Notes: generated by a model not told the origin, from the letters alone. A stretch of 32,000 bases of DNA from Coprobacillaceae bacterium (GCA_963675915.1 OY780959.1:360001-392000), one strand, 5' to 3'. Counted from the first letter of the stretch, positions 3,440 to 30,124 are shown. Program-made: numbers and translations.

Positions 3440-3519
3440 ATCGTAACGTATATCAAAACTGCCATCTAAAAGGTATGCGTCAAATAGAGCGGTGGTAGGT
3501 TGTCGAGGTCATTGATGGT

Positions 3520-3882
3520 ATGATTATCACATCGAATTGGAGGTGTGATGATTTGAATTATTCTGATGATCAGTGGCAGGTGATATTTACTGAGGCTGCC
3601 AATAGTGATCTGACCATTAAAAAATGGTGTTTGGCTAACGATGTTTCGTACAATGCTTTTTGCTACCACAAGTATTCTAAGCCATATTTGAATCGCTCAA
3701 GAGATGAAGTTAAGGATTCTGGATTTACTACAGCTCTTGTCAGGCTGGATATTGTTGATTGCAACAGTAAAGTTGTTTCCAAGGGGTTCGATGTCAATAT
3801 TGGCAAGGCTACTATTTCGGTTGACGACTCGACAGACTTGGAAACTCTGGCTAAACTGATAGGTATGATCAATGAAGCTTAG
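3520..3882 (+). CDS. tnpA: IS66 accessory protein TnpA (orf1)
   Basis: This is the first small ORF of the IS. It overlaps tnpB by 11 nt. An alternative TTG start at 3553 lies behind GGAGG (3540-3544). Confidence 0.75.
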   Translation: MIITSNWRCDDLNYSDDQWQVIFTEAANSDLTIKKWCLANDVSYNAFCYHKYSKPYLNRSRDEVKDSGFTTALVRLDIVDCNSKVVSKGFDVNIGKATISVDDSTDLETLAKLIGMINEA

Positions 3883-4231
3883 GTTTGAAGACTTCGACAA
3901 TATCTATTTGGTTCCTGGGGCAACTGATCTTAGGAAAAGCTACGCCGGGTTAAGCGCGATTGTATCCCACAGCCTGTATCTTGACCCCACCGCCAATAAC
4001 CTGTACATCTTTTGCAACAGATCCAAGAAAAGCATCAAGATGCTGGAGTTCGACAAGAACGGATTTGTCATCCACTCCAAGAAGCTGCTTAATAAAGATA
4101 AGTTCTTCTGGCCCAAGGGTGATGAAGATATCACTTCAATGGTTGTTGACATCCGTCAGTTGAGTTGGTTGCTTGATGGATTGGCAATTGAACAGAAAAG
4201 GGCATTCAAGGACATTTCAGTAATGATATAG
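3872..4231 (+). CDS. tnpB: IS66 accessory protein TnpB (orf2)
   Basis: The roughly 119-aa protein starting ...IYLVPGATDLRKSYAGLSAIV... fits the IS66 Orf2 pattern (DMRKSfdGL) and the expected position. Confidence 0.85.
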   Translation: MKLRFEDFDNIYLVPGATDLRKSYAGLSAIVSHSLYLDPTANNLYIFCNRSKKSIKMLEFDKNGFVIHSKKLLNKDKFFWPKGDEDITSMVVDIRQLSWLLDGLAIEQKRAFKDISVMI

Positions 4232-4378
4232 CCCCTACGCATAAGATTAATTCACATTTTTTTGTGGGTTTATCTTTTGCCTTTTGAAGTTATTCACATC
4301 TTTTATAAATTGCCGTGAAATCAAGACTTTCAGGGCTTTTTATGCTACAATGCCACTAGTGGAAAGAGGTGGATTCAA

Positions 4379-6163
4379 GTGATCAAATTGATGGAAGATA
4401 TGACAAAAGAAGAACTTATCGAAGCGTTCAAACAACGTGAACAGGAACTCTATGCCAAAATCGAATCCGACCGTATTTCAAAAGAAAAACTTATTAAAGA
4501 AAAGAAGAATTTATCTGCCGATAATAAGAAATTGACTTCCGATATTGATAAAATGGCAGCTGAAATCAAAGAACGCAAACTTGAACTACAACAGAAAAAC
4601 GAATACATCAAATTATTGGAAAACGCCCGCTACAGCTCCCAACGCAACAATATTAAGGAATATAACCAAGGTCCTGATCTGTTTAGTCTAATCGGTGTTG
4701 ATTTTGATAATGCTACTGAAACCGAAGAATTCGAAACTACGGAAATCAAAGGTTACAAAAGAAAAGTTAGAATCCCCAAAGAAAAACATATCAATTATGA
4801 CCATCTCAAAACCAATATAATTACAGAAGAAACTCCTGATGGTTTCGACGTTTGCGATCTTTGTGGTACAACTATGACAATCAAAAAATACGATGAAAGA
4901 AAAGAACTTGTCTATACACCCGCCAAAGTTGAATTGAATATTTACCGTACACCGGTATACGAATGTGTTGCTTGTCAGGAACACAACTTGGAAGGTAAAT
5001 CATCGTACAAGAAAGTTCCTGGAAGACAACCGGTTATCAAGGGAAGCATTGCATCGCCATCACTGATTGCAACTATAATGGACATGAAATATTTAAAGGG
5101 TTTGCCACTGGCTGCTCAGGAAAAACGTTTCCTTGAAAATGACATCGTCATCCCTAGACAGAATATGGCCAACTGGATGATCAAGGCATCGGTTCATCTT
5201 AACCTGTTGTTTGAGTGCATGCACAAAGACTTGTTGTCCATGGAAGTGATCCACTGCGATGAAACCACCACCCAGGTTCTAAAGGAAGAAGGCAAAGAAC
5301 CTCAAAGCAACTCTTACATGTGGGTGTTCAGAAGTAACCAGTATGATGCTCCGATTATCTTGTATCGTTATGATCCAACTCGCTCAAAAAAGGTTGTTGA
5401 GGACTTTATCGGTGATTACTCCAATCATATGGTTACCGATGCTTATATTGCTTACGAGTCATTGGATAATGTCACCAATTGCTTCTGCCATGTCCATGCT
5501 TTCCGCTATTTCCGTGAAGCCTTGGATGTACTGCCAAAAGGCAGCAATAAAAACCAAAGTTACGAATACAAATGCTATCGCTATTACAAAAAAGTATTCG
5601 AAGCAAAAAACAAAATTGAACAGGCTGCTAAGGGAAAATATCCAAAGAACCGGGATAAATATTTTCAATATATTCATAAGGGTCGAAAAGATGTCGTAAA
5701 GCCGATCTACGATAAGTTTTTAGCGTACCTTAAAGAAATAATCCTGTTGCCCGAAGTTAATATGAAACCAACCTTGCTTAAGGCAATCAAATATCTGATG
5801 AACCACGAAAAGGAATTCAGCGAGGTATTTAATAACCCGAAAGTTCCATTCGACAATTCAAGCACGGAGCGAGCTATCAGACCGTTTGTCGTATCAAGGA
5901 ATCGATGTAAATTCTATACAAGCCCCAAAGGAGCGCAAGCCGCAGCGATAATCTATTCGATACTGTTGAGCGCCCAGGAAAACAAGCTGTCACCGTACAT
6001 GTACATGACGTACGTACTGGAACGTCTTCCGGGAATCGATCCTACTGATGAAGAAGAAATTAGAAAACTACTACCCTACAATAAGGAACTGCCAAGATAT
6101 CTGCGTCAATTGACAGCGAAGGAAATCAAAGAACTAAAAAAAGGAATCCCAAGACGGAAATAA
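4379..6163 (+). CDS. tnpC: IS66-family DDE transposase TnpC
   Basis: It has an N-terminal coiled coil, a zinc finger (CDLCG...CVACQ) and DDE-region motifs HCDETTTQVL, VTDAYIAYESL and NSSTERAIRPF. The GTG start lies behind GAAAGAGGTGG. Confidence 0.9.
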   Translation: MIKLMEDMTKEELIEAFKQREQELYAKIESDRISKEKLIKEKKNLSADNKKLTSDIDKMAAEIKERKLELQQKNEYIKLLENARYSSQRNNIKEYNQGPDLFSLIGVDFDNATETEEFETTEIKGYKRKVRIPKEKHINYDHLKTNIITEETPDGFDVCDLCGTTMTIKKYDERKELVYTPAKVELNIYRTPVYECVACQEHNLEGKSSYKKVPGRQPVIKGSIASPSLIATIMDMKYLKGLPLAAQEKRFLENDIVIPRQNMANWMIKASVHLNLLFECMHKDLLSMEVIHCDETTTQVLKEEGKEPQSNSYMWVFRSNQYDAPIILYRYDPTRSKKVVEDFIGDYSNHMVTDAYIAYESLDNVTNCFCHVHAFRYFREALDVLPKGSNKNQSYEYKCYRYYKKVFEAKNKIEQAAKGKYPKNRDKYFQYIHKGRKDVVKPIYDKFLAYLKEIILLPEVNMKPTLLKAIKYLMNHEKEFSEVFNNPKVPFDNSSTERAIRPFVVSRNRCKFYTSPKGAQAAAIIYSILLSAQENKLSPYMYMTYVLERLPGIDPTDEEEIRKLLPYNKELPRYLRQLTAKEIKELKKGIPRRK

Positions 6164-6292
6164 ACTGTCCCTGGATTCCTTTTCACTTACCCTCGAATAT
6201 TCTCCCACCGCTCTATTTGACGCATACGATATAAATACTAGAACAAAATTCACATAATTGTAACATTACATATGTGTTATTATTCTCATATA

Positions 6293-6430: not shown

Positions 6431-8725
6431 ATGAAAATATATTTAGGGAAGTTTAGCAGCAAGTATCCTGAACAAGTAAAACATAGATTCTATGCTGCTG
6501 GAGTTGAAGGAAACAAATGGTATGGTGATGTCAAAGTCGGAGACTATGTTTTTGTCGGATATTCAGGCAAAATCATTGAATTGTGGCAGGCGAGAGAATA
6601 TGGGAAGTTTAAAAACAGTATAAACCCCAAAGATGACAATGTCTTGTTGTTTGATTTGGTCAAAAAATATGATGATATAAGCTTGATAAATGACTTTGCA
6701 AGATATAAGTATTTCAAACATGACTTGAATCTTGTAAATAAAATCTCTAAAAGCGTTACTGGATTGGGGTTTATTCCCATTAACACTTCAGAGAGTTGCC
6801 CGATGCCTGAAGACATTGATTTCAAGGCTGGTTTAGTAGATATCTACATATCCTTGAAAGAATTGGAAGTGGATTATAAAGAAGGTGACATTATCGTTAC
6901 GATAGATAATGAAACTTATATGAATATTGAAAGTATCAATCGGTTTAGAGATGGGCAATTTGTTTTGTATGAAGAGTTAAATAAATTATATGAAGAAAAA
7001 TGTGCGGATGATAAGAAATATTCGTTGAGTGAATTGCGATATTTTGCTGAGCAAGATAATGCGCCTAAAAAGCGTAACTATTTGGATTCTTTAATTGAAG
7101 AATTACATAAGAATGGATTCATGAAAGTATTCAGTATCGTAAGCTTGTATGACAATGTACTTGTCGGAAGAAAGAAAACATTTGTTGGAAAATCCAAACC
7201 AAAAGCTGGAGAATCTGTTATTGAAGAGACGGTTGATGATTCTGATAGTGATGACGAACAATATAATTTACAGGCAAGTTTGCTAAATTTTAATCCGAAC
7301 CTAATTTTATATGGACCTCCGGGAACGGGTAAAACATTTGCGACAAGAAAAATAATTGATAACTTTGAAAAGAAGTACAACAATAATGGTGGCAGCTACA
7401 AACAAGCAGACAAAGAAAATAGGGTTAAATCGGTAACTTTCCATCAGTCGTATTCCTATGAGGAATTTATTGAAGGAATCAGACCGGAATTAGGTGTGGA
7501 TTCTTCGAATGTTGGTTATAAGCTTGAAAATGGATTATTTAAAGAATTGTGCATCAATGCGGAGAAGGAATTTTTGAAAAATATTAACAATGTTGATTAT
7601 GTTGATATGATTCATTCCGAAAGCAAAATATGGAAGATGTCGCTAGGTGAGCGAAAGTCGAATACCTTGTTCAATGAATGCATTAGAGTCAATGATATTG
7701 CGATTGGCTGGTTGAATGATCAAGATTTGACAGATATGGATCAACAAGAGATCCTGGATGCTTTAGGGGATAGTAGCATTTTCGGTGATAAACCAACCCA
7801 AAATGCAAATACTATCTATTCATTTGTAAATGAGATGACAATTGGCGATATTGTCCTGGTTTATGATAGCCAGCAGACGACAAGGATGATAGGGGTTATC
7901 AAATCTGAATACCGATACGATCAAAAATATGAGGTTAGACACCGAAGAAGTGTGGAATGGTTCAAAGATTTAGACTATCCAATCAATATTCATAAATATA
8001 ATGGATACAAAAACTTATCTTTGAAGACTATTTATCCACTAACTAGAATTAGCATTTCCGACATAATCGAAATAGTGACTCAAAACAGCAATTCTCAAGC
8101 GAGTATGGAAGATAAAAAAGTTATCAAGCCTTACTATATGATTATTGATGAAATAAACCGAGGGAACATCGCCAAGATATTCGGAGAGTTAATTACTCTT
8201 GTTGAACAAGATAAGAGGGGAAATTATAAGAGTCTATTGCCCTATTCTAAGAAGGATTTTACTGTACCTAGCAATTTGTATATCATTGGTACCATGAATA
8301 CTGCCGACCGATCGATAGCCGCTATTGATACGGCGCTTAGAAGAAGGTTTACGTTTGTTGAAATCGAACCGGATTCATCAATTTTGTCACTGCAAGGTAA
8401 CGCGATAATTAACGATAAAGTTGATTTGGCGAAATTGCTTGATTCATTGAATGAACGAATCATCAACAACTATGATCGAGATCATCGGATTGGTCATGCC
8501 TATTTCATGGGTATTGAAACCTTGAATAATCTTTTCCAAACATGGTACTACAAAATCCTACCGCTATTGAGTGAATATTTCTACAATGATATCGAAGCGT
8601 TGCAGTCGATAGTTGGCAAGGATTTTTATGATGATAATGGCAATGTAAAATATCTGGACATATCTGATGATCAGCAAGGTGGTTCAGAGTTTGAGCAAAG
8701 TTTGATTAATATCTACCGGGTGTAG
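6431..8725 (+). CDS. mcrB: McrB-family AAA+ GTPase (type IV restriction motor subunit) with an extra N-terminal region and a roughly 175-aa insertion inside the AAA+ module
   Basis: Motifs seen are Walker A GPPGTGKT, FHQSYSYEEFIEGIRP, Walker B/McrB signature MIIDEINRGNIAKIFGELITLVEQDKRG, IIGTMNTADRS and ALRRRFTFVE. An mcrC-like gene follows 3 nt downstream. Confidence 0.9.
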   Translation: MKIYLGKFSSKYPEQVKHRFYAAGVEGNKWYGDVKVGDYVFVGYSGKIIELWQAREYGKFKNSINPKDDNVLLFDLVKKYDDISLINDFARYKYFKHDLNLVNKISKSVTGLGFIPINTSESCPMPEDIDFKAGLVDIYISLKELEVDYKEGDIIVTIDNETYMNIESINRFRDGQFVLYEELNKLYEEKCADDKKYSLSELRYFAEQDNAPKKRNYLDSLIEELHKNGFMKVFSIVSLYDNVLVGRKKTFVGKSKPKAGESVIEETVDDSDSDDEQYNLQASLLNFNPNLILYGPPGTGKTFATRKIIDNFEKKYNNNGGSYKQADKENRVKSVTFHQSYSYEEFIEGIRPELGVDSSNVGYKLENGLFKELCINAEKEFLKNINNVDYVDMIHSESKIWKMSLGERKSNTLFNECIRVNDIAIGWLNDQDLTDMDQQEILDALGDSSIFGDKPTQNANTIYSFVNEMTIGDIVLVYDSQQTTRMIGVIKSEYRYDQKYEVRHRRSVEWFKDLDYPINIHKYNGYKNLSLKTIYPLTRISISDIIEIVTQNSNSQASMEDKKVIKPYYMIIDEINRGNIAKIFGELITLVEQDKRGNYKSLLPYSKKDFTVPSNLYIIGTMNTADRSIAAIDTALRRRFTFVEIEPDSSILSLQGNAIINDKVDLAKLLDSLNERIINNYDRDHRIGHAYFMGIETLNNLFQTWYYKILPLLSEYFYNDIEALQSIVGKDFYDDNGNVKYLDISDDQQGGSEFEQSLINIYRV

Positions 8726-8728
8726 ACA

Positions 8729-9997
8729 ATGATTTCAAATGGTGTTGTCACAATCTTTGAGGATAAACAAAAAAAGCTGAATCTTTCTACTCAGCAATTC
8801 AATGATATCAACGAGATGAAAACAATTGTTGGTGAAGGAAATATTATTTTACAACATGACGGCAATCTGTTGGTAAGAGGGTATATTGGATTTGTCCAAG
8901 TGAATCAAACAAGGTTGCTAGTATATCCAAAAATATCAAATAGACTTGACGATGAAATGGAAAAGAAGCGGTCATTGCATATTTTCATTAGAATGCTTGC
9001 CTTTACAGGATTTGATAGTGTTAAAAAGACGCTTGATTCGCTAATGATGGATAAGTATCAAGGAGATATCCTCGAAATATTCATCGGCCTGTTTGTAGAT
9101 GAACTGGCACTGCAATTTAGTCGCGACATGAATCGTGGTTATAATAATATATTAGAAAATCAGTCATTTATCAAAGGAAAAGTTGATTTCCCAGAAACGG
9201 TAAAACGCAATAGTTTCCGCCGGCATATCCATACCGTCCGCTATGATCAGTTTACCGAAAATATTCTCATCAATCGTATTTTTAAATCGGTTATCATCAA
9301 TTTGAGCAAAGTAACAAAAATAAACAAGAACAAGATTGGCTTGAAGAAATTGATGCTTTGGCTGGAAGATGTTGATCAAATTAATTTGGATGATCAAATC
9401 TGGGATAGAGTGGTATTCAATCGTAATAGCAAAAACTACGAACCATCGTATAACTTGGCAAAAATGTTTTACTATAATTCAAGCCCCAACCTGAATCAGG
9501 GGGCTGATCTTGTGTTTAGTTTTCTTGTACCTGCGAATCAGCTTTTTGAGATGTACCTATACAAGACTTTATTACCGGGATTTACAAAAGACCAAGTGGT
9601 AAATTACCAAGGTCCAATGAAATATCTGGCTAGAAATTCAACTGAAAATATTTTCAGGTTGCGACCGGATATCACAATAACCAGAGATCACAAAGTAGAA
9701 CATCTTATTGACGCAAAATACAAGGACATCAGTTGTGATTATGGTAAACTCAAGATTTCCCAAAGTGATATTTATCAAATGCTTGCCTACAGCGTTCGAT
9801 ATCAGTGCAATAATGTTATGCTGGTATATCCAAAGTTTCTTGATGATGACAATGAACAGATATTGGTGGATCAACTAATGATCTCAAATTATGAAAAGAA
9901 TATTGTCATAAAGATTATCAAGATAGATTTGGAAATTGATCCTTATTTATTACTCCAAAGGTTGAAACTAGAAATATGCGAGTCTGATAATTTATGA
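8729..9997 (+). CDS. mcrC: McrC-family PD-(D/E)xK nuclease subunit
   Basis: RPDITI...HLIDAKYK is a nuclease motif and LFEMYLYKTLL is a McrC-like segment. The gene lies directly after the McrB-like gene. Confidence 0.85.
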   Translation: MISNGVVTIFEDKQKKLNLSTQQFNDINEMKTIVGEGNIILQHDGNLLVRGYIGFVQVNQTRLLVYPKISNRLDDEMEKKRSLHIFIRMLAFTGFDSVKKTLDSLMMDKYQGDILEIFIGLFVDELALQFSRDMNRGYNNILENQSFIKGKVDFPETVKRNSFRRHIHTVRYDQFTENILINRIFKSVIINLSKVTKINKNKIGLKKLMLWLEDVDQINLDDQIWDRVVFNRNSKNYEPSYNLAKMFYYNSSPNLNQGADLVFSFLVPANQLFEMYLYKTLLPGFTKDQVVNYQGPMKYLARNSTENIFRLRPDITITRDHKVEHLIDAKYKDISCDYGKLKISQSDIYQMLAYSVRYQCNNVMLVYPKFLDDDNEQILVDQLMISNYEKNIVIKIIKIDLEIDPYLLLQRLKLEICESDNL

Positions 9998-10022: not shown

Positions 10023-11228
10023 ATGTTAGGAGCGATAATAGGTGATATTGTTGGGAGCCCATATGAATTTGACTGTAATAATATCAAGATCAAGGATTTC
10101 CCTCTATTTTCTGAAGTATCGAGGTTTACCGATGATTCAATTATGACTATTGCGGTTGCCCAGGCAGTAATCAACGGTTATGGCTCAAAAGAAAAGACGA
10201 AATCCGAAGCTATAAAATCAATGCAAGCATTAGGGCGGAAATATCCCAATGCAGGATACGGGACTAATTTCATTAACTGGATCTATGAGGATAATCCTAA
10301 GCCCTATAATAGTTATGGGAACGGTTCGGCTATGAGAGTCTCGGCAGTTGCCTGGATTTACAATAATCTCAAAGAGGTAGAAGAATTCGCTGAGGTTACT
10401 GCTGCAGTGTCGCATGACCATCCGGAAGGAATAAAAGGGGCAAAAGCAACTGCTGCAGCAATTTTCCTTGCCAGACAGGGTGCAAATAAGAGTTATATAC
10501 AAAAGCATATAACGAATACATATCACTATAATTTGGACCTCAGCTGTGAAGAAATTCGTCGATATTATCGGCATGTTGAATCATGTCAGGAAACGGTGCC
10601 TGAAGCAATCATTGCTTTTCTTGAAGGAAATAGTTTTGAGGATGTGATAAGGCTGGCGGTATCTTTAGGGGGAGACAGCGATACATTGACGGCGATTGCA
10701 GCAAGTATTGCAGAAGCATATTACCATGTCCCTGAAGAAATCAAAAGAAAATCCTGTTCCATTTTGGATGAATATTTGAAAACTTTACTTGTGTCGTTTG
10801 ATGTGTTCCGAAGTAATATTATTGAAAGACGAAAAAAGATATTTGATGATTTGATGTCAAGTAAACCATACTTTGATAAGGAGAGTAAAACGCAATGGAC
10901 TGAAGCAAATCGGGACGGCAATCAAGTTCGATTTGCGTACACTGTGTATGGTAAAGAAGTTGAATTGCTGCAGCGCTTTGCTCAAAGTGGAGATTTTACT
11001 GATTTTGATTACCATGATACCTTGGACAATTTTGGCTTGAGTATGGACTTGGATCTATACCAGAGAGCAGCTGAAAATTCTTGCCCTCTATTGTTAAGGG
11101 CAATGCTTACAAGTATCGTTCGTCAAGAAAGATTCAATGATGGACTGATTGCTAGAGCGATAGAAACTGGAACTATAAGCGCTATTTTGGATTCCTATAG
11201 CAAACAACTTAATTCGGAGTGTTTGTAA
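10023..11228 (+). CDS. ADP-ribosylglycohydrolase (ARH/DraG family) fused to an unassigned C-terminal domain of about 120 aa
   Basis: ARH hallmarks are GAIIGDIVGSPYEF, FTDDSIMT, YGNGSAMRVSAVAW, HDHPEGIKGA and LGGDSDTLTAIAASIAEA. AGGAGGA at 10012-10018 precedes the start, 25 nt after the mcrC stop. Confidence 0.85.
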   Translation: MLGAIIGDIVGSPYEFDCNNIKIKDFPLFSEVSRFTDDSIMTIAVAQAVINGYGSKEKTKSEAIKSMQALGRKYPNAGYGTNFINWIYEDNPKPYNSYGNGSAMRVSAVAWIYNNLKEVEEFAEVTAAVSHDHPEGIKGAKATAAAIFLARQGANKSYIQKHITNTYHYNLDLSCEEIRRYYRHVESCQETVPEAIIAFLEGNSFEDVIRLAVSLGGDSDTLTAIAASIAEAYYHVPEEIKRKSCSILDEYLKTLLVSFDVFRSNIIERRKKIFDDLMSSKPYFDKESKTQWTEANRDGNQVRFAYTVYGKEVELLQRFAQSGDFTDFDYHDTLDNFGLSMDLDLYQRAAENSCPLLLRAMLTSIVRQERFNDGLIARAIETGTISAILDSYSKQLNSECL

Positions 11229-11298: not shown

Positions 11299-12243
11299 AT
11301 GGAAAGAAATTCAAAAAAATCGGAAAAAAGCATTAAGGATACCCTAAAGAAAGCAGCTAAAAATACAGGAGATGTTGCATCAGGGGTGTTAGGAAAAGCG
11401 AAAGATACTGCTGTTAATTCCACAAACACAGTGCTAAACGTGGTTGATGTAAATGGTAATGGAGAAATAGATATTGAGGATTTTATTATATTAGGGCTGA
11501 AAACTCCTGGTATAAGTGTGAATCGAAATGACTTTTTGCAAAGAGAACTAATGAAAAATTTCCCTCAAGAAACAATAGATGATGCAATATCACATAATCC
11601 AGCTCACGCAAATATACCATCGGAATATATTGATAAGATTGCTGGTGAAGTAATAAAATTCGAAAGAAATTGTGTATCAGGAATCTCAACGGCGCTAGGA
11701 ATTCCGGGTGGAGTGGCCATGGTAGCTACAATTCCAGCTGACCTTGTTCAATATTATGGATATATGCTTAGAGCTGCTCAAAAACTTTTATATCTATATG
11801 GCTTCCCTGAAATAGATACTACTGAAAAAAGTAATAAGATTGATTCTGAGACTATGAATATTTTGATTCTTAGTCTAGGGGTTATGTATGGAGTTCACGG
11901 AGCTAATAATGCTTTAAAAGCAGTTGCAAAAGCATTGGGAAGTGGTGTTGAAAAAAAATTGCTAAAAACCGCACTGACGAAAGGTACCATATATCCTATT
12001 GTCAAGAGCGTCTCAAAATGGTTTGGGGTTAATATGACCAAGCAAGTATATGCCGGTTTCTTTAAAAAGGCAATTCCTGTTGTAGGAGGAGTGATAGGTG
12101 GAGGAATCACCTATTTATCATTTAAACCGTGCTGTGATAAACTACAGAAATCCTTACAAGACACATTGTTAAGCAATCCAAGCCATCACTCTAGCGATGA
12201 TGAAAACATTATTTATGATGCTTTTGAGGTTATTGAAGATTAG
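11299..12243 (+). CDS. EcsC-family protein with an N-terminal EF-hand/dockerin-like calcium-binding loop
   Basis: The central region ISTALGIPGGVAMVATIPADLVQYYGYMLRAAQKLLYLYGFPE resembles the EcsC family. The loop DVNGNGEIDIED fits DxNxNGxIxxxD. The RBS AGGAGG lies at 11285-11290. Confidence 0.7.
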   Translation: MERNSKKSEKSIKDTLKKAAKNTGDVASGVLGKAKDTAVNSTNTVLNVVDVNGNGEIDIEDFIILGLKTPGISVNRNDFLQRELMKNFPQETIDDAISHNPAHANIPSEYIDKIAGEVIKFERNCVSGISTALGIPGGVAMVATIPADLVQYYGYMLRAAQKLLYLYGFPEIDTTEKSNKIDSETMNILILSLGVMYGVHGANNALKAVAKALGSGVEKKLLKTALTKGTIYPIVKSVSKWFGVNMTKQVYAGFFKKAIPVVGGVIGGGITYLSFKPCCDKLQKSLQDTLLSNPSHHSSDDENIIYDAFEVIED

Positions 12244-12603
12244 AAAATCAAGTTATCATGTTTTGTGTGTTACAAAGATAAACTATTGTGATCGACAAAT
12301 TTTGCGGGATTGTTTATTTAGGCTTTTATATAAATCTATGAAATCAAGTAACTGATTCTGCGAAGTTGATATGAATTAATAATTCAGAGGTTAACTGTAG
12401 CTAGCCATTTTATTTGATGCCATCTAACCATAATCTAGTCATAATAAATAAAGGTCAATTCCAAATAATTTGATGAATTTTTCTTCAAATTGCTTGAGAT
12501 TGACCTTTTGCTTTGTTATTTTATTGGTAATAAATCTAGAGAAAGAAAAAATGAGAGACGCCACCACCAAGCAGTTTCTCTCATTTGCCATATAGACAAG
12601 AAT

Positions 12604-13158
12604 ATGATAACGTATCACGGAGTAAAAATCAATAATAAATTGATGAAGATTGATTCGCGGGCCAAACTCCAGGCCTATTATAATGAATTGGTTTCCAATA
12701 TCAATCGTTTTTCCTTGAGTTGCGCTGGTGACTGCCAGGGCAATTTCATAATTCATGGTTATTATAACCGAAGGGTGAAACTGCCTTTTGGCTTTTTTAA
12801 TTTGAGAATAATGCGGCTAAGATGTAAGGATTGTGGCAGAACCCACGCAATTCTTCTTTCATGTTTGGTTCCATATTCAAGTATCCCGTTGGCTGTTCAA
12901 GTTGAGATTTCCATACATAAAAATAATCAGAAACTATTAAAAGCCATTCTTGATCGAAATCCCTATATGTCTGAGTGTGAAATTTATAATGTTGTGAGCA
13001 GGTATATCAATGTTTGGCAGCAACGTTTGATGTCGTTGAGAATTGAATCAAATGATATTAACCAACTTGTTGAAAGTTGTTTTTCAAATTATTTGATGCA
13101 GTTCATGCAATGTAGAAATACCATAAATATCCTGTATACCATCAACCACATAGGATGA
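12604..13158 (+). CDS. Zinc-ribbon protein of the transposon (DUF6431-like pattern); start uncertain
   Basis: CAGDCQGNFIIHGYYNRRV...LRCKDCGRTHAILLSCLVPYS gives a CxxC...HG / CxxC..TH pattern. The track ORF starts at 12490 inside the transposon end. The first in-frame ATG is at 12604 and has no clear RBS. Confidence 0.55.
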   Translation: MITYHGVKINNKLMKIDSRAKLQAYYNELVSNINRFSLSCAGDCQGNFIIHGYYNRRVKLPFGFFNLRIMRLRCKDCGRTHAILLSCLVPYSSIPLAVQVEISIHKNNQKLLKAILDRNPYMSECEIYNVVSRYINVWQQRLMSLRIESNDINQLVESCFSNYLMQFMQCRNTINILYTINHIG

Positions 13159-13206
13159 GTTAAATAATCGATTCTATTAGTATATAGTGGGTGACGGAGG
13201 TATTAT

Positions 13207-14454
13207 ATGGATAAAAAAGAACAAGAATACGTAGCGTTGATGCGCCATCGGATCATTCATGACATCATTACCGGAAATTATGATGCTGCATGGTCTAAGA
13301 ATCAGGCGATTACGGAAGCTACCAAGAAAGTCTATAAGAGTTTCGACAACCGTGATTTCACTGTCTCAAGCAGTACCATCTCCAGATGGATTGCTGCTTA
13401 CGAAGAAAAAGGCTTCGATGGATTGATTCCTCAAAAGCGGAGTGATTGTGGCAAGTCAAGAAGACTGGATGATGACATCGTTGAAACAATCAAATATTAT
13501 AAGACAACCTATCCTAGATTGCCGGCAACTGTAATATACGGCAAGTTGATTGAGAAAGGAATCATCAAGAAAACTGATGTTTCCCTATCAACCGTTAACC
13601 GATGTGTCAATCAGATAAAGTCGGAATTGCGGCTTTCAAACAAGAAAGACATGCGTCGCTACGAAGTGCCCCATATCAATATGAACTGGGCTGGCGACAG
13701 TTCGGTCGGCCCTTACATAACCATTAATGGCAAGAAGAACCGGACATACATGATTGCCCTGATCGATGATGCTTCAAGGATGATCGTCCATCTTGATTTG
13801 TATTTGAATGACAACACAGTCAATTTGATGGATACCATGAAAAGTGCGGTAACAAAATATGGAGTTCCTGAGATGTTCAGGTTTGACAACGGCTCCAATT
13901 ATCGAAATCACCAGATCAAGATGATTGCAGCAAGGATTAATTCAACCATTAGCTACTGCAAACCGTACTCGCCGGAAGGAAAATCAAAAATTGAGCGGGT
14001 GTTTCGGACGATCAAAGATCAGTTCTTCGCCCAAATAAACATAAAAGATTACACAAACAATCTAGAAGGTTTGAAGCAGGATTTAAGCCAGTTCATCAAT
14101 GATTACAACAACAAGGTGCATTCGTCTTTGAATGGATTGACACCTCATCAACGTTTTTTTCAGGAAAGCAACCTTATCAAAAGGCTTGATGATGACTTTA
14201 TCGACAACACTTTCCTGTTCGAAGTAGAGCGGTCTGTCAGTACTGATTCGGTAATCAAAATAGATAATCGGGAATACGAGATTGATTATATCTATTCTGG
14301 TGAAAGGCATATGTTCCGATATACTCCGGACTTGGAAAACGTCTATATAGTCAACAAGAATACCGGCGAACTGGAACGGATTCACCTACTTGATAAAAAC
14401 GCCAATTCAAAAGTAAAACGAGTGCAGCCAAAATTATGCGGAGGAGAAGATTAA
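13207..14454 (+). CDS. DDE transposase (rve/integrase core with Mu-transposase-like C-terminal barrel)
   Basis: An N-terminal HTH is present (SSSTISRWIAAYEEKGFDGL). The candidate D, D, E triad is NWAGDSSV, FRFDNGSNYRN and PEGKSKIERVFRTIK. The C-terminal VIKIDNREYEI...FRYTPDLENVYIV is Mu-like. The RBS is GGAGG. Confidence 0.85.
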   Translation: MDKKEQEYVALMRHRIIHDIITGNYDAAWSKNQAITEATKKVYKSFDNRDFTVSSSTISRWIAAYEEKGFDGLIPQKRSDCGKSRRLDDDIVETIKYYKTTYPRLPATVIYGKLIEKGIIKKTDVSLSTVNRCVNQIKSELRLSNKKDMRRYEVPHINMNWAGDSSVGPYITINGKKNRTYMIALIDDASRMIVHLDLYLNDNTVNLMDTMKSAVTKYGVPEMFRFDNGSNYRNHQIKMIAARINSTISYCKPYSPEGKSKIERVFRTIKDQFFAQINIKDYTNNLEGLKQDLSQFINDYNNKVHSSLNGLTPHQRFFQESNLIKRLDDDFIDNTFLFEVERSVSTDSVIKIDNREYEIDYIYSGERHMFRYTPDLENVYIVNKNTGELERIHLLDKNANSKVKRVQPKLCGGED

Positions 14455-15257
14455 TGGAAAAATATTGGACCAGATATGGATTGGAATTCAATCCGTTTAT
14501 CAAGAACTCAAAGAATTTATTTATTGAAACAAGTGAATACCAGGAATTGAAAGTACGCCTTAACAGCCTTTTTGAAATCAAGGGTTTCGGACTAATAGTC
14601 GGTGAACCCGGCCATGGCAAAACAACCATGATCAGAAACTATATCAAAACACTCCCCAAATCAGCTTACAAGATAATTTATTTGTCAATGTCGACCCTTA
14701 CAGTCAAGGAGTTCTATATGCAACTAGCTGAGTCGCTGGATCTGACTCCTCGGTATCGAAAGAATGATCTGTTCAGGGAGATCCAATCAGCCATAAACCA
14801 GTTGATTTACGAAAAAAGGATTACCCCGGTGTTTATCTTTGATGAATGTAATTACATGAATAACGCCATTCTTAATGATTTGAAGATGATCTTCAATTTT
14901 GATATGGATTCCAAGGATCATGCTGTAGTCTTGATGGTCGGATTGCCGACAATAACAAGGAACCTGAAATTAACCGCTCATGAACCATTGCGCCAGCGAA
15001 TGATTATCAATTACAAACTTGAGCCATTGAACAAGAGTGAAAGTCTTGCTTATATCAAAGACAAGCTCCAAGGCGGAAAAACAATTCAAGAAGTGTTCAA
15101 TGATAATGCAATTGAGGCAATCATCAATGCATCCAACGGCACCTGTCGGGTTATTGATCGGATATGTGACCGGGCAATGTTTATCGGAGCAATCAGAAAA
15201 ATCGAAGTAATTGATTCCGATTTAATCCTAGAAACAATCGAAGAGGTAGTAATTTGA
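14454..15257 (+). CDS. AAA+ ATPase transposition helper (ExeA/TniB/MuB-like)
   Basis: YGLEFNPF...LIVGEPGHGKTT (Walker A) and VFIFDECN (Walker B) are present. The ATG overlaps the transposase stop (TAATG). GGAGGAG lies upstream. Confidence 0.8.
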   Translation: MEKYWTRYGLEFNPFIKNSKNLFIETSEYQELKVRLNSLFEIKGFGLIVGEPGHGKTTMIRNYIKTLPKSAYKIIYLSMSTLTVKEFYMQLAESLDLTPRYRKNDLFREIQSAINQLIYEKRITPVFIFDECNYMNNAILNDLKMIFNFDMDSKDHAVVLMVGLPTITRNLKLTAHEPLRQRMIINYKLEPLNKSESLAYIKDKLQGGKTIQEVFNDNAIEAIINASNGTCRVIDRICDRAMFIGAIRKIEVIDSDLILETIEEVVI

Positions 15258-15562
15258 TAATCGAATACTTCTGCAACTATGATGAAAAAACATGGGCCAA
15301 CGAGATAGTAATAGTCTCACAAAACCCAGATAAGTGTGAATTCCAGCTAAGATATGACGGAAATGAAATCGAAGTGATAGTAGGTAAATCAGCCAAAGGG
15401 AACTGGATTTGCATCCCGTTGATGAAGCTGGGACTGGAACTATCATATTTCAAAGACAAATTTTGGAACAAGTCAGCTCTATTGCGCGAGATAGATCCAA
15501 TCAGCAGCGAAGCAATATCACAAGCAATCTACAAAATAAACGAGTCAGGGATAATCGTCTAA
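15254..15562 (+). CDS. Small transposon-encoded hypothetical protein (102 aa)
   Basis: The TTG start overlaps the ATPase stop by 4 nt and the ORF lies inside the transposon ends. No motif was recognised. Confidence 0.45.
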   Translation: MIIEYFCNYDEKTWANEIVIVSQNPDKCEFQLRYDGNEIEVIVGKSAKGNWICIPLMKLGLELSYFKDKFWNKSALLREIDPISSEAISQAIYKINESGIIV

Positions 15563-17030: not shown

Positions 17031-17124
17031 ATTGAGGTTCTTCATCTAACTATATTGTATGCGTCAAATAGAGCGGTGGGAGAATATTTAATGGTATGCA
17101 AAAAGGAATCCGGGGGACAGTTTG

Positions 17125-18906
17125 TTACCGTCTTGGGATTCCTTTTTTGAGGCCCTTGATCTCCTTCGTGGTCAATTGACGCAGGTATGTTGGCAGTTCC
17201 TTATTGTAGGGTAGTAGTTTCCTGATTTCATCTTCATCACTAGAATCTATTCCCGGCAGCCTTTCCAGTACGTACTCCATGTACATGTACGGTGACAGCT
17301 TGTTTTCCTGGGCGCTTAACAGTATCGAATAGATTATCGCTGCGGCTTGCGCTCCTTTGGGGCTTGTATAGAATTTACATCGATTCCTTGATACGACAAA
17401 CGGTCGTATAGCCCGTTCCGTGCTTGAATTGTCGAATGGAACTTTCGGGTTATTAAATACCTCGCTGAATTCCTTTTCGTGGTTCATCAGATATTTGATT
17501 GCCTTAAGCAAGGTTGGTTTCATATTAACTTCGGGCAACAGGATTATTTCTTTAAGGTACGCTAAAAACTTATCGTAGATCGGCTTTACGACATCTTTTC
17601 GACCCTTATGAATATATTGAAAATATTTATCCCGGTTCTTTGGATATTTTCCCTTAGCAGCCTGTTCAATTTTGTTTTTTGCTTCGAATACTTTTTTGTA
17701 ATAGCGATAGCAAGTGTATTCGTAACTTTGATTTTTATCGGTGCCTTTTGGCAGTACATCCAAGGCTTCCCGGAAATAGCGAAAGGCATGAACGTGGCAA
17801 AAACAGTTGGTGACATTATCAAGCGACTCGTAAGCACCATAGGCGTCTGTTACCAGATAGTGGGAGTAATCACCGATGAAGTCTTCAACAACCCGTTTTG
17901 AACGACTAGGATCATAACGGTACAAGATAATTGGTTCGTCATACTGATTGCTCCGTAGAACCCAAAGATATGATTTGCTTTGCGCTGGTTTGCCGTCTTC
18001 CTTTAGAACCTGGGTGGTGGTTTCATCGCAGTGGATCACTTCCATGGACAACAAGTCTTTGTGCATGCACTCAAACAACAGGTTAAGATGAACCGATGCC
18101 TTGATCATCCAGTTGGCCATATTCTGTCTAGGGATGACGATGTCATTTTCAAGGAAACGTTTTTCCTGAGCAGCCAGTGGCAAACCCTTTAAATATTTCA
18201 TGTCCATTATAGTTGCAATCAGTGATGGCGATGCAATGCTTCCCTTGATAACCGGTTGTCTTCCAGGAACTTTCTTGTACGATGATTTACCTTCCAAGTT
18301 GTGTTCCTGACAAGCAACACATTCGTATACCGGTGTACGGTAAATATTCAATTCAACTTTGGCGGGTGTATAGACAAGTTCTTTTCTTTCATCGTATTTT
18401 TTGATTGTCATAGTTGTACCACAAAGATCGCAAACGTCGAAACCATCAGGAGTTTCTTCTGTAATTATATTGGTTTTGAGATGGTCATAATTGATATGTT
18501 TTTCTTTGGGGATTCTAACTTTTCTTTTGTAACCTTTGATTTCCGTAGTTTCGAATTCTTCGGTTTCAGTAGCATTATCAAAATCAACACCGATTAGACT
18601 AAACAGATCAGGACCTTGGTTATATTCCTTAATATTGTTGCGTTGGGAGCTGTAGCGGGCGTTTTCCAATAATTTGATGTATTCGTTTTTCTGTTGTAGT
18701 TCAAGTTTGCGTTCTTTGATTTCAGCTGCCATTTTATCAATATCGGAAGTCAATTTCTTATTATCGGCAGATAAATTCTTCTTTTCTTTAATAAGTTTTT
18801 CTTTTGAAATACGGTCGGATTCGATTTTGGCATAGAGTTCCTGTTCACGTTGTTTGAACGCTTCGATAAGTTCTTCTTTTGTCATATCTTCCATCAATTT
18901 GATCAC
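17125..18906 (-). CDS. tnpC: IS66-family DDE transposase TnpC (copy B; diverges from copy A in blocks in its C-terminal half)
   Basis: The first roughly 303 aa are identical to copy A. Clustered substitutions follow (for example DGKPAQSKSYLWVL against EGKEPQSNSYMWVF). Confidence 0.9.
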   Translation of the reverse strand: MIKLMEDMTKEELIEAFKQREQELYAKIESDRISKEKLIKEKKNLSADNKKLTSDIDKMAAEIKERKLELQQKNEYIKLLENARYSSQRNNIKEYNQGPDLFSLIGVDFDNATETEEFETTEIKGYKRKVRIPKEKHINYDHLKTNIITEETPDGFDVCDLCGTTMTIKKYDERKELVYTPAKVELNIYRTPVYECVACQEHNLEGKSSYKKVPGRQPVIKGSIASPSLIATIMDMKYLKGLPLAAQEKRFLENDIVIPRQNMANWMIKASVHLNLLFECMHKDLLSMEVIHCDETTTQVLKEDGKPAQSKSYLWVLRSNQYDEPIILYRYDPSRSKRVVEDFIGDYSHYLVTDAYGAYESLDNVTNCFCHVHAFRYFREALDVLPKGTDKNQSYEYTCYRYYKKVFEAKNKIEQAAKGKYPKNRDKYFQYIHKGRKDVVKPIYDKFLAYLKEIILLPEVNMKPTLLKAIKYLMNHEKEFSEVFNNPKVPFDNSSTERAIRPFVVSRNRCKFYTSPKGAQAAAIIYSILLSAQENKLSPYMYMEYVLERLPGIDSSDEDEIRKLLPYNKELPTYLRQLTTKEIKGLKKGIPRR

Positions 18907-19053
18907 TTGAATCCACCTCTTTCCACTAGTGGCATTGTAGCATAAAAAGCCCTGAAAGTCTTGATTTCACGGCAATTTATAAAAGATGTGAATAACTTCA
19001 AAAGGCAAAAGATAAACCCACAAAAAAATGTGAATTAATCTTATGCGTAGGGG

Positions 19054-19413
19054 CTATATCATTACTGAAATGTCCTTGAATGCCCTTTTCTGTTCAATTG
19101 CCAATCCATCAAGCAACCAACTCAACTGACGGATGTCAACAACCATTGAAGTGATATCTTCATCACCCTTGGGCCAGAAGAACTTATCTTTATTAAGCAG
19201 CTTCTTGGAGTGGATGACAAATCCGTTCTTGTCGAACTCCAGCATCTTGATGCTTTTCTTGGATCTGTTGCAAAAGATGTACAGGTTATTGGCGGTGGGG
19301 TCAAGATACAGGCTGTGGGATACAATCGCGCTTAACCCGGCGTAGCTTTTCCTAAGATCAGTTGCCCCAGGAACCAAATAGATATTGTCGAAGTCTTCAA
19401 ACCTAAGCTTCAT
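19054..19413 (-). CDS. tnpB: IS66 TnpB (copy B)
   Basis: The protein is identical to that of copy A. Confidence 0.85.
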   Translation of the reverse strand: MKLRFEDFDNIYLVPGATDLRKSYAGLSAIVSHSLYLDPTANNLYIFCNRSKKSIKMLEFDKNGFVIHSKKLLNKDKFFWPKGDEDITSMVVDIRQLSWLLDGLAIEQKRAFKDISVMI

Positions 19414-19765
19414 TGATCATACCTATCAGTTTAGCCAGAGTTTCCAAGTCTGTCGAGTCGTCAACCGAAATAGTAGCCTTGCCAATATTGACATCGAACC
19501 CCTTGGAAACAACTTTACTGTTGCAATCAACAATATCCAGCCTGACAAGAGCTGTAGTAAATCCAGAATCCTTAACTTCATCTCTTGAGCGATTCAAATA
19601 TGGCTTAGAATACTTGTGGTAGCAAAAAGCATTGTACGAAACATCGTTAGCCAAACACCATTTTTTAATGGTCAGATCACTATTGGCAGCCTCAGTAAAT
19701 ATCACCTGCCACTGATCATCAGAATAATTAAAATCATCACACCTCCAATTCGATGTGATAATCAT
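19403..19765 (-). CDS. tnpA: IS66 TnpA (copy B)
   Basis: It differs from copy A by one residue (DDFNY against DDLNY). Confidence 0.75.
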   Translation of the reverse strand: MIITSNWRCDDFNYSDDQWQVIFTEAANSDLTIKKWCLANDVSYNAFCYHKYSKPYLNRSRDEVKDSGFTTALVRLDIVDCNSKVVSKGFDVNIGKATISVDDSTDLETLAKLIGMINEA

Positions 19766-19833
19766 ACCATCAATGACCTCGACAACCTACCACCGCTCTA
19801 TTTGACGCATACGGTAGAACTCCAGGATGCTGT

Positions 19834-21702: not shown

Positions 21703-21779
21703 GTGGAGACTATGAGACAAAAGATTATGTGGACGCTTTTCTTTTGTTTAGTCAGTAGCGTAACCTGCCTTTGGCAGGT
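21703..21779 (+). repeat. Conserved leader block, copy 1, interrupted by the IS; it continues at 23825-23885
   Basis: The block aligns with 28772-28848: GGAGACTATGA.ACA.AAGATTA....GACGCTTTTCT..TGTT.A.TCAGTAGC.TAACCTGCC....GCAGGT. Confidence 0.75.
21763..21779. repeat. Left copy of the 17-bp direct repeat ACCTGCCTTTGGCAGGT flanking the IS (putative target-site duplication)
   Basis: An identical 17-mer lies at 23808-23824, immediately outside the two IS ends. Confidence 0.75.
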
Positions 21780-21974
21780 CAATGGAGTCAACTTAAGGAA
21801 TTTTTTCCTAGTTGGCTCTTTTTATATCTAAAAGCATCTTCAATATCAATCTCTGTCGCTTAATACAAGCCTAGTTTAAATCATCTCATGAAAAAAAGCG
21901 CATAATCCCCCATGGAATTTTAGCGTTTTAAAAAAAATTTTGATATTAGTGTTATAATGATTGTGTATTCTTGA

Positions 21975-23646: not shown

Positions 23647-23807
23647 AATATCGCCTCTTTTCTTAACTACATTATACCACTATAATGACTAATTATAGGA
23701 AAATATAAACTATAGTCTTAACTACAAATCAAAATCAAATAGCATACAGTTGACAAAAGCGACAAAAAAAGAGCCGACTTAAGAAATTTCTTAAGTTGAC
23801 TCCATTG

Positions 23808-23824
23808 ACCTGCCTTTGGCAGGT
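23808..23824. repeat. Right copy of the 17-bp direct repeat ACCTGCCTTTGGCAGGT
   Basis: See 21763-21779. Confidence 0.75.
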
Positions 23825-23885
23825 TTTTGTTTATTATTTGAAGTTGTCTACTTTAAAGACAGTATCAGACAGGAGGAGTGTTTTT

Positions 23886-24575
23886 ATGAAAAGAAGTCCT
23901 TTATTAGTGATAGTACTGGCATTGATCTTAACCGGTTGTTTCCGAACTGGTCCCAATGAATTTGATGAAGAAGTTTATAGTTACGATATTTCCACACCAG
24001 AGCCGATGAAAGAAATTGAATTCCAGGATGAAGGATTTAAGAACTACATCAAGGAATATTTGCAGTTGGATGATGTGATCTACTGGAAGGATGTAGCCAA
24101 TATTCGAGAAATGTATTTTTACTCCATCCTTGAATTTGATGAATCAATACAAATTCAATCGTTGATAGATCTAAAGTGGTTTATTAATCTGGAAATGCTG
24201 GTAATAGATGAGGATGATCCTGTTAAATGTAACTTAAGTGATTTGAGTGGCTGCTCCAATTTGTGGGAGGTATACTTGTCCAATTCACAGATAACAGGTG
24301 ATCTTAGCGACATAAGTGAATTGACTAATATCAGCTGTCTGCTATTGGAGAATACTGATATCACGGGAGATCTAAGTGATTTAAGGAAGCTTAAAAATCT
24401 TCATCGTTTAAATTTGAGTAATACAAATATCACCGGAGACATCTGCAATTTAATTGGCTTAGGGATGTTTGATGAATTATATTTGGTAAATACCGATGTG
24501 TATGATAGTTCCAATTGTTTGGGGGAATTGATTGAATTTGCCGACTCTGATTTTAGTGGAACACAAATTGAATGA
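23886..24575 (+). CDS. Leucine-rich-repeat lipoprotein (paralog 1)
   Basis: The ATG at 23886 follows AGGAGGAG. The signal peptide has the lipobox LTGC. Repeats are of the type ITGDLSDISELTNISCLLLENTD / ITGDLSDLRKLKNLHRLNLSNTN. Confidence 0.8.
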   Translation: MKRSPLLVIVLALILTGCFRTGPNEFDEEVYSYDISTPEPMKEIEFQDEGFKNYIKEYLQLDDVIYWKDVANIREMYFYSILEFDESIQIQSLIDLKWFINLEMLVIDEDDPVKCNLSDLSGCSNLWEVYLSNSQITGDLSDISELTNISCLLLENTDITGDLSDLRKLKNLHRLNLSNTNITGDICNLIGLGMFDELYLVNTDVYDSSNCLGELIEFADSDFSGTQIE

Positions 24576-28771: not shown

Positions 28772-28909
28772 ATGGAGACTATGATACAGAAGATTACCTT
28801 GACGCTTTTCTGCTGTTGACTCAGTAGCATAACCTGCCAAGTGCAGGTTTTTGTTTTCTACTTAAAGTTGTGTTTTTGAAGAACATTAAAAGGAATGAGG
28901 AGTGTTGAA
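28772..28909 (+). repeat. Conserved leader block, copy 2 (intact), including a terminator-like hairpin aacctgcc-aagt-gcaggtt plus T-run
   Basis: It aligns with 21703-21779 plus 23825-23885. The hairpin lies at 28831-28849 and is followed by TTTTGTTTT. Confidence 0.75.
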
Positions 28910-30124
28910 ATGAAAAGAATGGTTGCATTGCTTACTATTTTGACTTTGGTATTGAGTGGCTGTCGCTCCGGATCTGAGGACGCAGCAGGCGAAAGAATTA
29001 TGAATTATTTTGAGGAACATTATGGCGAGGGGTATTCAATCGGAGAAGTCAATTACAACTACTTGAAAGGTTGTTATGACACCAATGTAAAATCAGCTGA
29101 ATTTGAAGCGGATTTTGCGCAAGCCGCCGAAAATTTGCCTGATAATCTCCGGGTTGATGATTCGCGATTTGTCATCGAAGCCATGCTTTGTGGGGATGAG
29201 ATATATATTGAGAAGCGGTTGAAAGTGGAAATTGTAGATCATGATGATAGCGTGGCTCTTGAAGAAAGCCGGGCTGTGCCTCGGGAAATTCGAAACATAA
29301 TTATTGAGCCGTTGAATGACAAATACGATCTTGATGTCTGGTCAATTGTCTATACCGATATTAATGGTCTCTTTGAACTATCCAGTGATTCCTATTTCAG
29401 TGAATTGCTCCGCTCGGATCTATTCGATGAGATTGAATTCAAAGATGCGGGATTTGAAAGATTCACAAGGGAATTTCTAGACCTGAACGATGATCCGGTT
29501 TTACGAAAAGACATTATTCGGGTTGATGATTTGGATGCATTTATTCTGCTGCAACAGGATCCTTCAATCAATATTGAATCTTTGGAAGACATAAAATGGT
29601 TCTCCAATCTGGAATGCGTTCTAATATTCGATCTCCCAGTTTCGGTTGATTTAAGTTATTTTAGCGATATGGAAAAACTGGATTATATCATCATTACTAA
29701 TGTTGCATCGCTTACCGGCGATTTAAGCGACTTGAGTGGATTAAGGAAATTGGAGTCCCTTGAAATCTCAGGGGAAGGGATAACCGGGAATCTAGGCAGT
29801 CTTGGGGAAATTGATAACCTTTCAAGCATCATCATATCCAATGCCCCAATTACCGGGGACCTTAGCGACATCGGGGGATTAGATTCCATTGGAGTCCTTA
29901 AGCTAAGGAATACCGAGATTACCGGGGATATCAGTTTTTTAAGCAGATACAAATCCCTTCAAGATATAGACTTGTCGAATACACAAGTTGGTGGCGATAT
30001 CTGCAGTCTAAAAGATCTTCATGAACTGACGGATTTGTATCTAGCCAACACCGATGTTTATGGCGATTCCGACTGCCTGGATGATTTGACCGACTACGAT
30101 TACAGTGGTTCTCAGATCAAGTGA
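28910..30124 (+). CDS. Leucine-rich-repeat lipoprotein (paralog 2)
   Basis: The ATG at 28910 follows GAGGAG. The lipobox is LSGC. The C-terminal LRRs (LTGDLSDLSGLRKLESLEISGEG, ITGDLSDIGGLDSIGVLKLRNTE ...) are collinear with paralog 1. Confidence 0.8.
   Translation: MKRMVALLTILTLVLSGCRSGSEDAAGERIMNYFEEHYGEGYSIGEVNYNYLKGCYDTNVKSAEFEADFAQAAENLPDNLRVDDSRFVIEAMLCGDEIYIEKRLKVEIVDHDDSVALEESRAVPREIRNIIIEPLNDKYDLDVWSIVYTDINGLFELSSDSYFSELLRSDLFDEIEFKDAGFERFTREFLDLNDDPVLRKDIIRVDDLDAFILLQQDPSINIESLEDIKWFSNLECVLIFDLPVSVDLSYFSDMEKLDYIIITNVASLTGDLSDLSGLRKLESLEISGEGITGNLGSLGEIDNLSSIIISNAPITGDLSDIGGLDSIGVLKLRNTEITGDISFLSRYKSLQDIDLSNTQVGGDICSLKDLHELTDLYLANTDVYGDSDCLDDLTDYDYSGSQIK

Follow-up and report, generated by a model that had tools for sequence, protein, structure and literature searches.

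A predicted EVE/YTH-like DUF8426 domain within the AAA+ core of an McrB-family GTPase, a probable second reader of modified DNA

McrBC is the textbook modification-dependent (Type IV) restriction system. A 764-amino-acid (aa) McrB-like protein encoded in the genome of a Coprobacillaceae bacterium (GCA_963675915.1, OY780959.1:360001-392000; this stretch of 32,000 nucleotides (nt) is called the window below, and nucleotide positions count from its first letter) raises the question of what separates the two nucleotide-binding motifs of its GTPase, and for what purpose: the Walker A lysine (Lys301) and the Walker B aspartate (Asp573) lie 272 residues apart, as compared to 72 in E. coli McrB (EcMcrB). 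An initial annotation of the window, made from the sequence alone, had put these distances at about 270 and 70-80. We propose, at a probability of roughly 70%, that the protein is an McrBC motor with two independent readers of the PUA superfamily, one N-terminal and one (DUF8426) lodged within the AAA+ core. The gene and the parts of its product are as follows.

6431-8725, + strand: mcrB-like gene, 764 aa plus stop, with an AAGGGG ribosome-binding site 8 nt upstream
6431-6832, + strand: N-terminal EVE-like (PUA-superfamily) domain as predicted, aa 1-134
6833-7180, + strand: middle domain, aa 135-250, predicted to have four strands followed by four helices
7181-7261, + strand: disordered acidic linker, aa 251-277, holding DDSDSDDE (269-276)
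7262-7606, + strand: AAA+ GTPase part 1, with Walker A (7313-7336), the FHQSYSYEEFIEG block, and helix 2 with its hairpin region; aligned to residues 12-109 of T. gammatolerans McrB (TgMcrB) and EcMcrB 191-269
7607-8125, + strand: inserted EVE/YTH-like domain as predicted (Pfam 38.1 DUF8426, PF28530), aa 393-565, with boundaries taken from natural insert-less relatives
8126-8725, + strand: AAA+ GTPase part 2, with Walker B DEINR (8147-8161), NxxD (8297-8308), RRRF and the lid domain; aligned to TgMcrB 161-368 and EcMcrB 272-461

The insertion point could be placed by residue-level alignment to two solved McrBs. In a phmmer search against PDB chains, residue 380 of the window McrB pairs with EcMcrB 269 and residue 566 with EcMcrB 272, so that 185 residues (381-565) occupy the place of two EcMcrB residues; TgMcrB (published numbering Lys221/Asp356; PMC7680126) has about 50 residues at the same site (query 385 corresponding to chain residue 109 and query 563 to chain residue 161). 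In the AAA+ core, the site follows the end of helix 2 and precedes the Walker B strand, and the segment singled out by the initial annotation (aa 385-560, 7583-8110) thus proves to be bracketed by homologous motor sequence on both sides. That the long spacing is an artefact (of a usual spacing wrongly estimated, of gene fusion or of faulty assembly) has next to no chance of being correct, and the sequence comparisons lead us to treat it as refuted: apart from the bracketing alignments, the gene is a single uninterrupted open reading frame (ORF) in a complete one-contig genome, and more than 100 independent cluster representatives have the same topology.

Identity of the motor itself is clear from its sequence. 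Walker A reads GPPGTGKT (aa 295-302) and Walker B DEINR (aa 573-577), and the McrB signature MNTAD (aa 622-626) is of the NxxD type and aligns with the same block of TgMcrB and EcMcrB, with RRRF following at aa 637-640. The best phmmer scores against PDB sequences were to TgMcrB (6ut3, E 6e-67) and EcMcrB (6hz4, E 4e-43). The protein is a member of the McrB family by these comparisons but not an EcMcrB equivalog, because its match to the NCBIfam McrB model PRK11331 (4e-44, 150.9 bits) falls under the 637-bit equivalog cut-off. Placement in the CoCoNuT branch of McrBC systems was considered and ruled out by the NxxD (not NxD) signature; no long coiled coil is seen in the modelled regions, aa 1-290 and 380-565. 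The Pfam family PF28529 probably corresponds to aa 576-764, given that a homologue spanning 13-575 lacks it and one spanning 239-764 has it.

The insert was modelled with AlphaFold2 (AF2) as aa 380-565 from an alignment of 40 homologues, giving a mean predicted local distance difference test score (pLDDT) of 84 and a predicted template modelling score (pTM) of 0.81. Best Foldseek matches of this model were MJECL36, YTHDF2, VcaM4I and PH1033. Structural alignment with VIA-align gave Z 10.0 for both VcaM4I (126 residues, 3.7 Å) and MJECL36 (117 residues, 3.1 Å), Z 9.8 for PH1033, and Z 9.4-9.6 for YTHDF2/YTHDC2; on PH1033, VcaM4I and MJECL36 the model superposes over 114-126 residues at 3.0-3.7 Å. 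In an unbiased scan of 48,161 PDB chains, 19 matches reached Z 5 or above and the next scores were Z 4.6 or lower; all 19 are EVE/YTH/ASCH readers except a segment of DrmA (7s9w, Z 6.3). Among them are the 5-hydroxymethylcytosine/5-methylcytosine (5hmC/5mC) enzyme VcaM4I, THYN1 in complex with 5mC DNA, and the McrB N-terminal domains from T. gammatolerans and S. marinus. The predicted structure therefore has the EVE/YTH-type PUA-like pseudo-barrel fold, in agreement with the PUA/EVE/ASCH-like fold that the initial annotation had read from the strand pattern.

Sequence searches tie the insert to uncharacterized families. Precomputed annotation places PF28530 on it, and its closest ESM Atlas clusters carry the name DUF8426 (Pfam 38.1); in our own searches of PHROGs, NCBIfam and a Pfam-A copy that lacks PF28530, neither the insert nor the N-terminal or middle domain was assigned to a family. 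The profiles of the PADLOC defence candidate PDC-S02 (308-346 positions) match the insert at 1e-13, via the PDC-S02 N-terminal domain only: most of these matches span profile positions ∼4-125, and two reach ∼173-182. We considered PDC-S02 as one half of a split McrB and rejected this, the reader domain alone being in common, and the window protein is likewise not a PADLOC PDC-S02, as no profile matches at full length. Across 187 diverse copies of the insert, the aromatic residues W401, W427, Y494, W510 (100%) and Y535 are conserved, as are K402, S404, G472-D473 and R506. The aromatic set would fit a retained aromatic pocket.

A second reader-like domain stands at the N-terminus of the same protein. 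We modelled aa 1-290 with AF2 (pLDDT 85), and aa 1-134 of this model exceed pLDDT 90. VIA matched aa 1-134 to MJECL36 (2p5d, Z 9.1), PH1033 (2hd9, Z 8.9; 1wmm, Z 8.6), VcaM4I (Z 8.6) and 2eve (Z 7.6), values modestly over the tool's stated background of 7-8; the top rows are all from a single superfamily and span the domain in full. Foldseek pointed to this superfamily as well, and the unbiased scan of PDB chains retrieved the same families together with the TgMcrB N-terminal domain (6p0g, Z 6.3). The model thus places aa 1-134 among the PUA-like pseudo-barrels of EVE/YTH type. The initial annotation had seen a small second barrel in aa 1-60, followed by a spacer over aa 120-290; the reader-like character of the N-terminus is upheld, with the difference that the domain takes in about 134 residues. 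Its acidic DDSDSDDE stretch is indeed found at aa 269-276, in a linker (aa 251-277) of 27 aa with pLDDT 30-42, and most of the supposed spacer is instead a third domain, confidently predicted as folded, aa 135-250, with pLDDT of 79-96 per 10-residue block. In the aa 1-290 model this middle domain had no covering PDB match above Z 3.4, which does not imply a new fold, and the ESM Atlas gave no usable lead for it. In 37 close homologues and 11 representative clusters, it is found together with the N-terminal domain.

We looked for an internal duplication as the origin of the two EVE-like domains and rejected it: BLASTP gave E 2.7 and hhalign a probability of 12%, aligning solely a GD-hydrophobic strand motif that both share. 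By sequence the two are without detectable relation and not recent duplicates, and their ligand class need not be common. This is a point in favor of there being one active reader only, in which case DUF8426 would read modified bases and the N-terminal EVE-like and middle domains would be otherwise employed, in oligomerization or in binding of RNA or protein, or the reverse. Precedent for such employment comes from the EVE domains of PcdA, which serve cell-division localization rather than restriction (10.1101/2023.09.03.556088). Within the close family, however, both reader-like domains retain ∼61-62% identity, as compared to 70-72% for the motor and 16% for the linker, which suggests that both are under constraint, and relatives devoid of the insert (described below) retain the N-terminal pair, suggesting its sufficiency for some function. 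We therefore hold a single active reader to be quite unlikely.

To estimate how common the layout is, we searched with the insert alone (phmmer, E ≤0.001) against 1.84 billion cluster representatives (50%-identity clusters), retrieving 1171 proteins or clusters. In 121 of the best 150, the domain is flanked by Walker A on its N-terminal side and by Walker B on its C-terminal side, and NxxD usually comes later still. The embedded domain thus defines, by this sequence count, a very large McrB subfamily, and the layout is widespread rather than rare. N-terminal regions of the insert-bearing McrBs vary widely in length, with Walker A beginning anywhere from residue 13 to 890, and in 56 diverse examples Pfam sees EVE, MrcB_N, SRA or DUF7225 domains in a few. 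In 7 of the best 150, the insert-type domain lies upstream of Walker A. Six of these are McrB-type GTPases with a Walker spacing of 79-81 (the four scanned with Pfam have an uninterrupted AAA_5), and the seventh (P0175, 718 aa) has DUF8426 N-terminal to an FtsK/SpoIIIE translocase with gamma domain. One further protein of the 150 (P0053, 355 aa) has DUF8426 C-terminal to a PLD/NgoFVII-like nuclease; P0053 and P0175 are candidates for further modification-dependent systems. Because relatives of the insert occur N-terminal to McrB GTPases, on a PLD nuclease, on an FtsK-type translocase and in PDC-S02, the insert appears to behave as a mobile specificity module, in support of our proposal of two readers.

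Close relatives that do without the insert were found by searching with the C-terminal motor half (aa 566-764) among 90%-identity clusters. Ten clusters of 463-598 residues (P0192-P0196, P0198, P0201, P0203, P0205 and P0226) have annotation devoid of PF28530 and are 60-66% identical overall to the window McrB (alignment A4). Seven are full-length, with the same N-terminal EVE-like domain, middle domain, linker and motor, and three are N-terminally shorter; GTPase motifs are all kept. Each of the ten shows a clean in-frame gap, nine of them missing exactly aa 393-565 (junction ...KYID|KPYY...) and P0226 having different deletion boundaries. Counted from the first Walker A glycine, their Walker spacing is 106 or 96, as compared to 278 in the window McrB. 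Trees of the motor core were built with the insert columns taken out and with McrBs of uninterrupted GTPase as the outgroup. Both with FastTree (96 rows) and with an IQ-TREE mixture model (38 rows), the insert-less rows branch from within the insert-bearing clade, at two separate points. The approximately unbiased (AU) test rejects grouping all insert-bearing rows together (p 0.019) and a single clade of insert-less rows (p 0.009); the groups compared were defined by the trait, but the FastTree result had been seen beforehand, the tree searches were quick ones, and the rooting depends on the chosen outgroup. The simplest reading of these sequence data is that the insert has been precisely and secondarily lost at least twice. 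We did not find these insert-less relatives described in the McrB literature searched.

Because these relatives appear to have lost the insert cleanly with the motor motifs kept, the embedded domain seems dispensable for maintaining an intact motor gene, and an accessory specificity module fits better than an integral part of the motor. This bears on a competing explanation, in which the insert, despite its EVE fold, is no specificity reader and instead forms an invariant structural or regulatory component of this McrB subfamily. It might serve as a non-specific DNA clamp for translocation, as a contact between hexamers or with McrC, or as a sensor of free modified nucleotide, and target choice would then sit only in the variable N-terminal modules. 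A place beside the Walker B strand would suit allosteric control, and a PUA-like domain that binds free m6-dAMP is reported for another defence system (10.64898/2026.01.15.699771). Yet at least two losses with every motor motif kept suggest that the insert is unneeded for persistence of the motor, and the same domain family occupies classic reader positions elsewhere, N-terminal to McrB GTPases and on a PLD nuclease. The strongly conserved aromatics also suggest a ligand pocket, though a free nucleotide would fit one too. On balance we consider a non-reader role improbable, if less so than a single active reader, and a dispensable accessory module acting as a second reader is the most likely identity of the insert.

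Several points nonetheless count against the proposal of two readers. Neither the insert nor the N-terminal domain matches a Pfam EVE (PF01878), YTH or ASCH hidden Markov model (HMM) at E up to 1; assignment as a reader therefore rests on the predicted structure together with the sequence links to uncharacterized families, and we accordingly call the fold of the insert EVE-like without placing the domain in Pfam EVE. The insert is conserved over a large clade of McrBs with very different N-termini, which could equally reflect a constant, non-specific role. Where it sits on the ring, and whether that place is compatible with access of DNA, is read from parallel-sheet topology only, and our search of the McrB literature found no experimental work on any DUF8426-bearing McrB.

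If two readers are present, the system would most likely work as follows. McrB hexamers would assemble around the finger domain of McrC, and both reader modules would bind flipped-out modified bases in incoming DNA; McrC-stimulated GTP hydrolysis would power translocation, and the PD-(D/E)xK domain of McrC would cut. The insert is predicted to enter and leave at the N-terminal edge of the parallel sheet, the same edge that receives the linker to the N-terminal modules. Both readers may thus share one side of the ring: two short connections near the Walker B strand would fix the embedded reader to one point of the surface, and the N-terminal reader would hang on a long tether. Known targets are 5mC or 5hmC for EVE relatives and N6-methyladenine (6mA) for YTH relatives; any choice among modifications for the window McrB, and any division of labor between its readers, would be by inference from such relatives. 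More tentatively, because two short connections join the embedded reader straight to helix 2 and to the Walker B strand, it might serve as an allosteric switch through which GTP hydrolysis responds to capture of a modified base. Its position could also mark the path of DNA over the outside of the McrB ring. We think this doubtful at present; were it so, the insert-less relatives would be constitutive or differently gated motors.

The partner gene and its surroundings complete the description of the locus.

8729-9997, + strand: mcrC, 422 aa, with a PF10117 match and a nuclease motif

The gap between the mcrB stop codon and mcrC is 3 nt, making a two-gene McrBC anti-phage restriction system. The mcrC product matches Pfam McrBC PF10117 (2e-65, profile positions 3-318 of 318), as expected of an McrC with a DUF2357-type N-terminal region, and its nuclease motif PD...D-A-K is intact at aa 313-331, conforming to the PD-(D/E)xK pattern. 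Promoter and terminator scans around the mcrBC operon gave nothing better than shuffled sequence. The mcrB gene is accessory in its host genome, where it has one copy. With a single-sequence query, the DUF8426-type insert domain was not found in 40 relatives from within the genus, family or order of the host, and was found in 5 of 398 other genomes sampled across the phylum; a search of genome contigs for related loci retrieved one distant locus only. Two IS66-family copies (TnpB_IS66 and DDE_Tnp_IS66 genes) at 3473-6246 and 17038-19812 of the window, in inverted orientation and 97% complementary over 2699 nt, flank a 10.8 kb segment with mcrBC and its neighbors. The bracketed segment looks like a composite transposon, which fits the absence of mcrB from relatives. 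Also within it, 25 nt past mcrC and on the same strand, is a gene for an ADP-ribosylglycohydrolase fused to DUF6508 (10023-11228), followed by an ORF without Pfam match (11299-12243). The gene cluster at 12490-15562 has the look of a transposon nested within the IS66-bracketed segment; its products are a DUF6431 protein, an rve-type integrase with HTH domains, an AAA_22/TniB-like ATPase and a DUF6618 protein. Farther along the window, a hairpin-containing element with core ACCTGCCTTTGGCAGGT is repeated upstream of genes (21762-21806, 23781-23825, 23808-23895 and 28832-28919), its copies pairing once in inverted orientation and once as direct repeats of 88 nt (74% identical).

The discovery is a modest one, of a layout that is widespread and noted in the literature, and its useful extra is the natural insert-less relatives. 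These allow clean comparison of variants with and without the insert, for what it adds in specificity, affinity or gating. The subfamily is also large and its hallmark domain still a DUF. The central pore is plugged by McrC, and density for the flexible N-terminal domains of McrB is only weak (PMC7680126). A reader fixed in the motor fold would give a rigid DNA-contact point, and therefore the structure of such a complex could settle how DNA runs around McrB-McrC.

Among known systems, TgMcrBC (YTH-McrB; 6ut3/6ut5 for the motor, 6p0g for the N-terminal domain) gives the best sequence match to a solved structure (E 6e-67, as above) and is alike in its NxxD GTPase, McrC partner and PUA-superfamily (YTH) reader for modified bases; its N-terminal domain superposes on both the window N-terminal domain (Z 6.3) and the insert (Z 6.9). 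TgMcrB differs in having a single reader, N-terminal, and ∼50 residues where the window McrB has 178. VcaM4I (EVE plus HNH; 6yex) supplies one of the closest structural matches through its EVE domain (insert Z 10.0, N-terminal domain Z 8.6), but VcaM4I and PDC-S02 are single-chain reader-nucleases without a motor, and share the reader domain alone. EVE-McrB fusions (Bell, Wolf and Koonin 2020, PMC7641849) likewise join EVE-type readers to an McrB GTPase, and S. aureus PcdA has two EVE domains in tandem at its N-terminus, so McrB-family proteins with two EVE domains are known; in all of these the EVE domains precede the motor, whereas in the window McrB one interrupts it. The initial annotation considered this an unusual specificity architecture, a view that gives way before PcdA, the 1171 insert relatives (121 of the best 150 having the same topology), the existence of DUF8426 in Pfam 38.1, and the statement of Bell, Makarova, Wolf and Koonin (2024, eLife, PMC11090510) that McrB GTPase domains often have insertions, likely specificity domains. 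That statement is one sentence, giving no fold, site or family for the insertions and deferring the NxxD branches to a later publication, and we found no other paper giving the fold or site of McrB GTPase insertions. Beyond it, the present analysis adds for one lineage a predicted EVE/YTH-like fold, a site between helix 2 and the Walker B strand, a family (DUF8426), and probable secondary losses.

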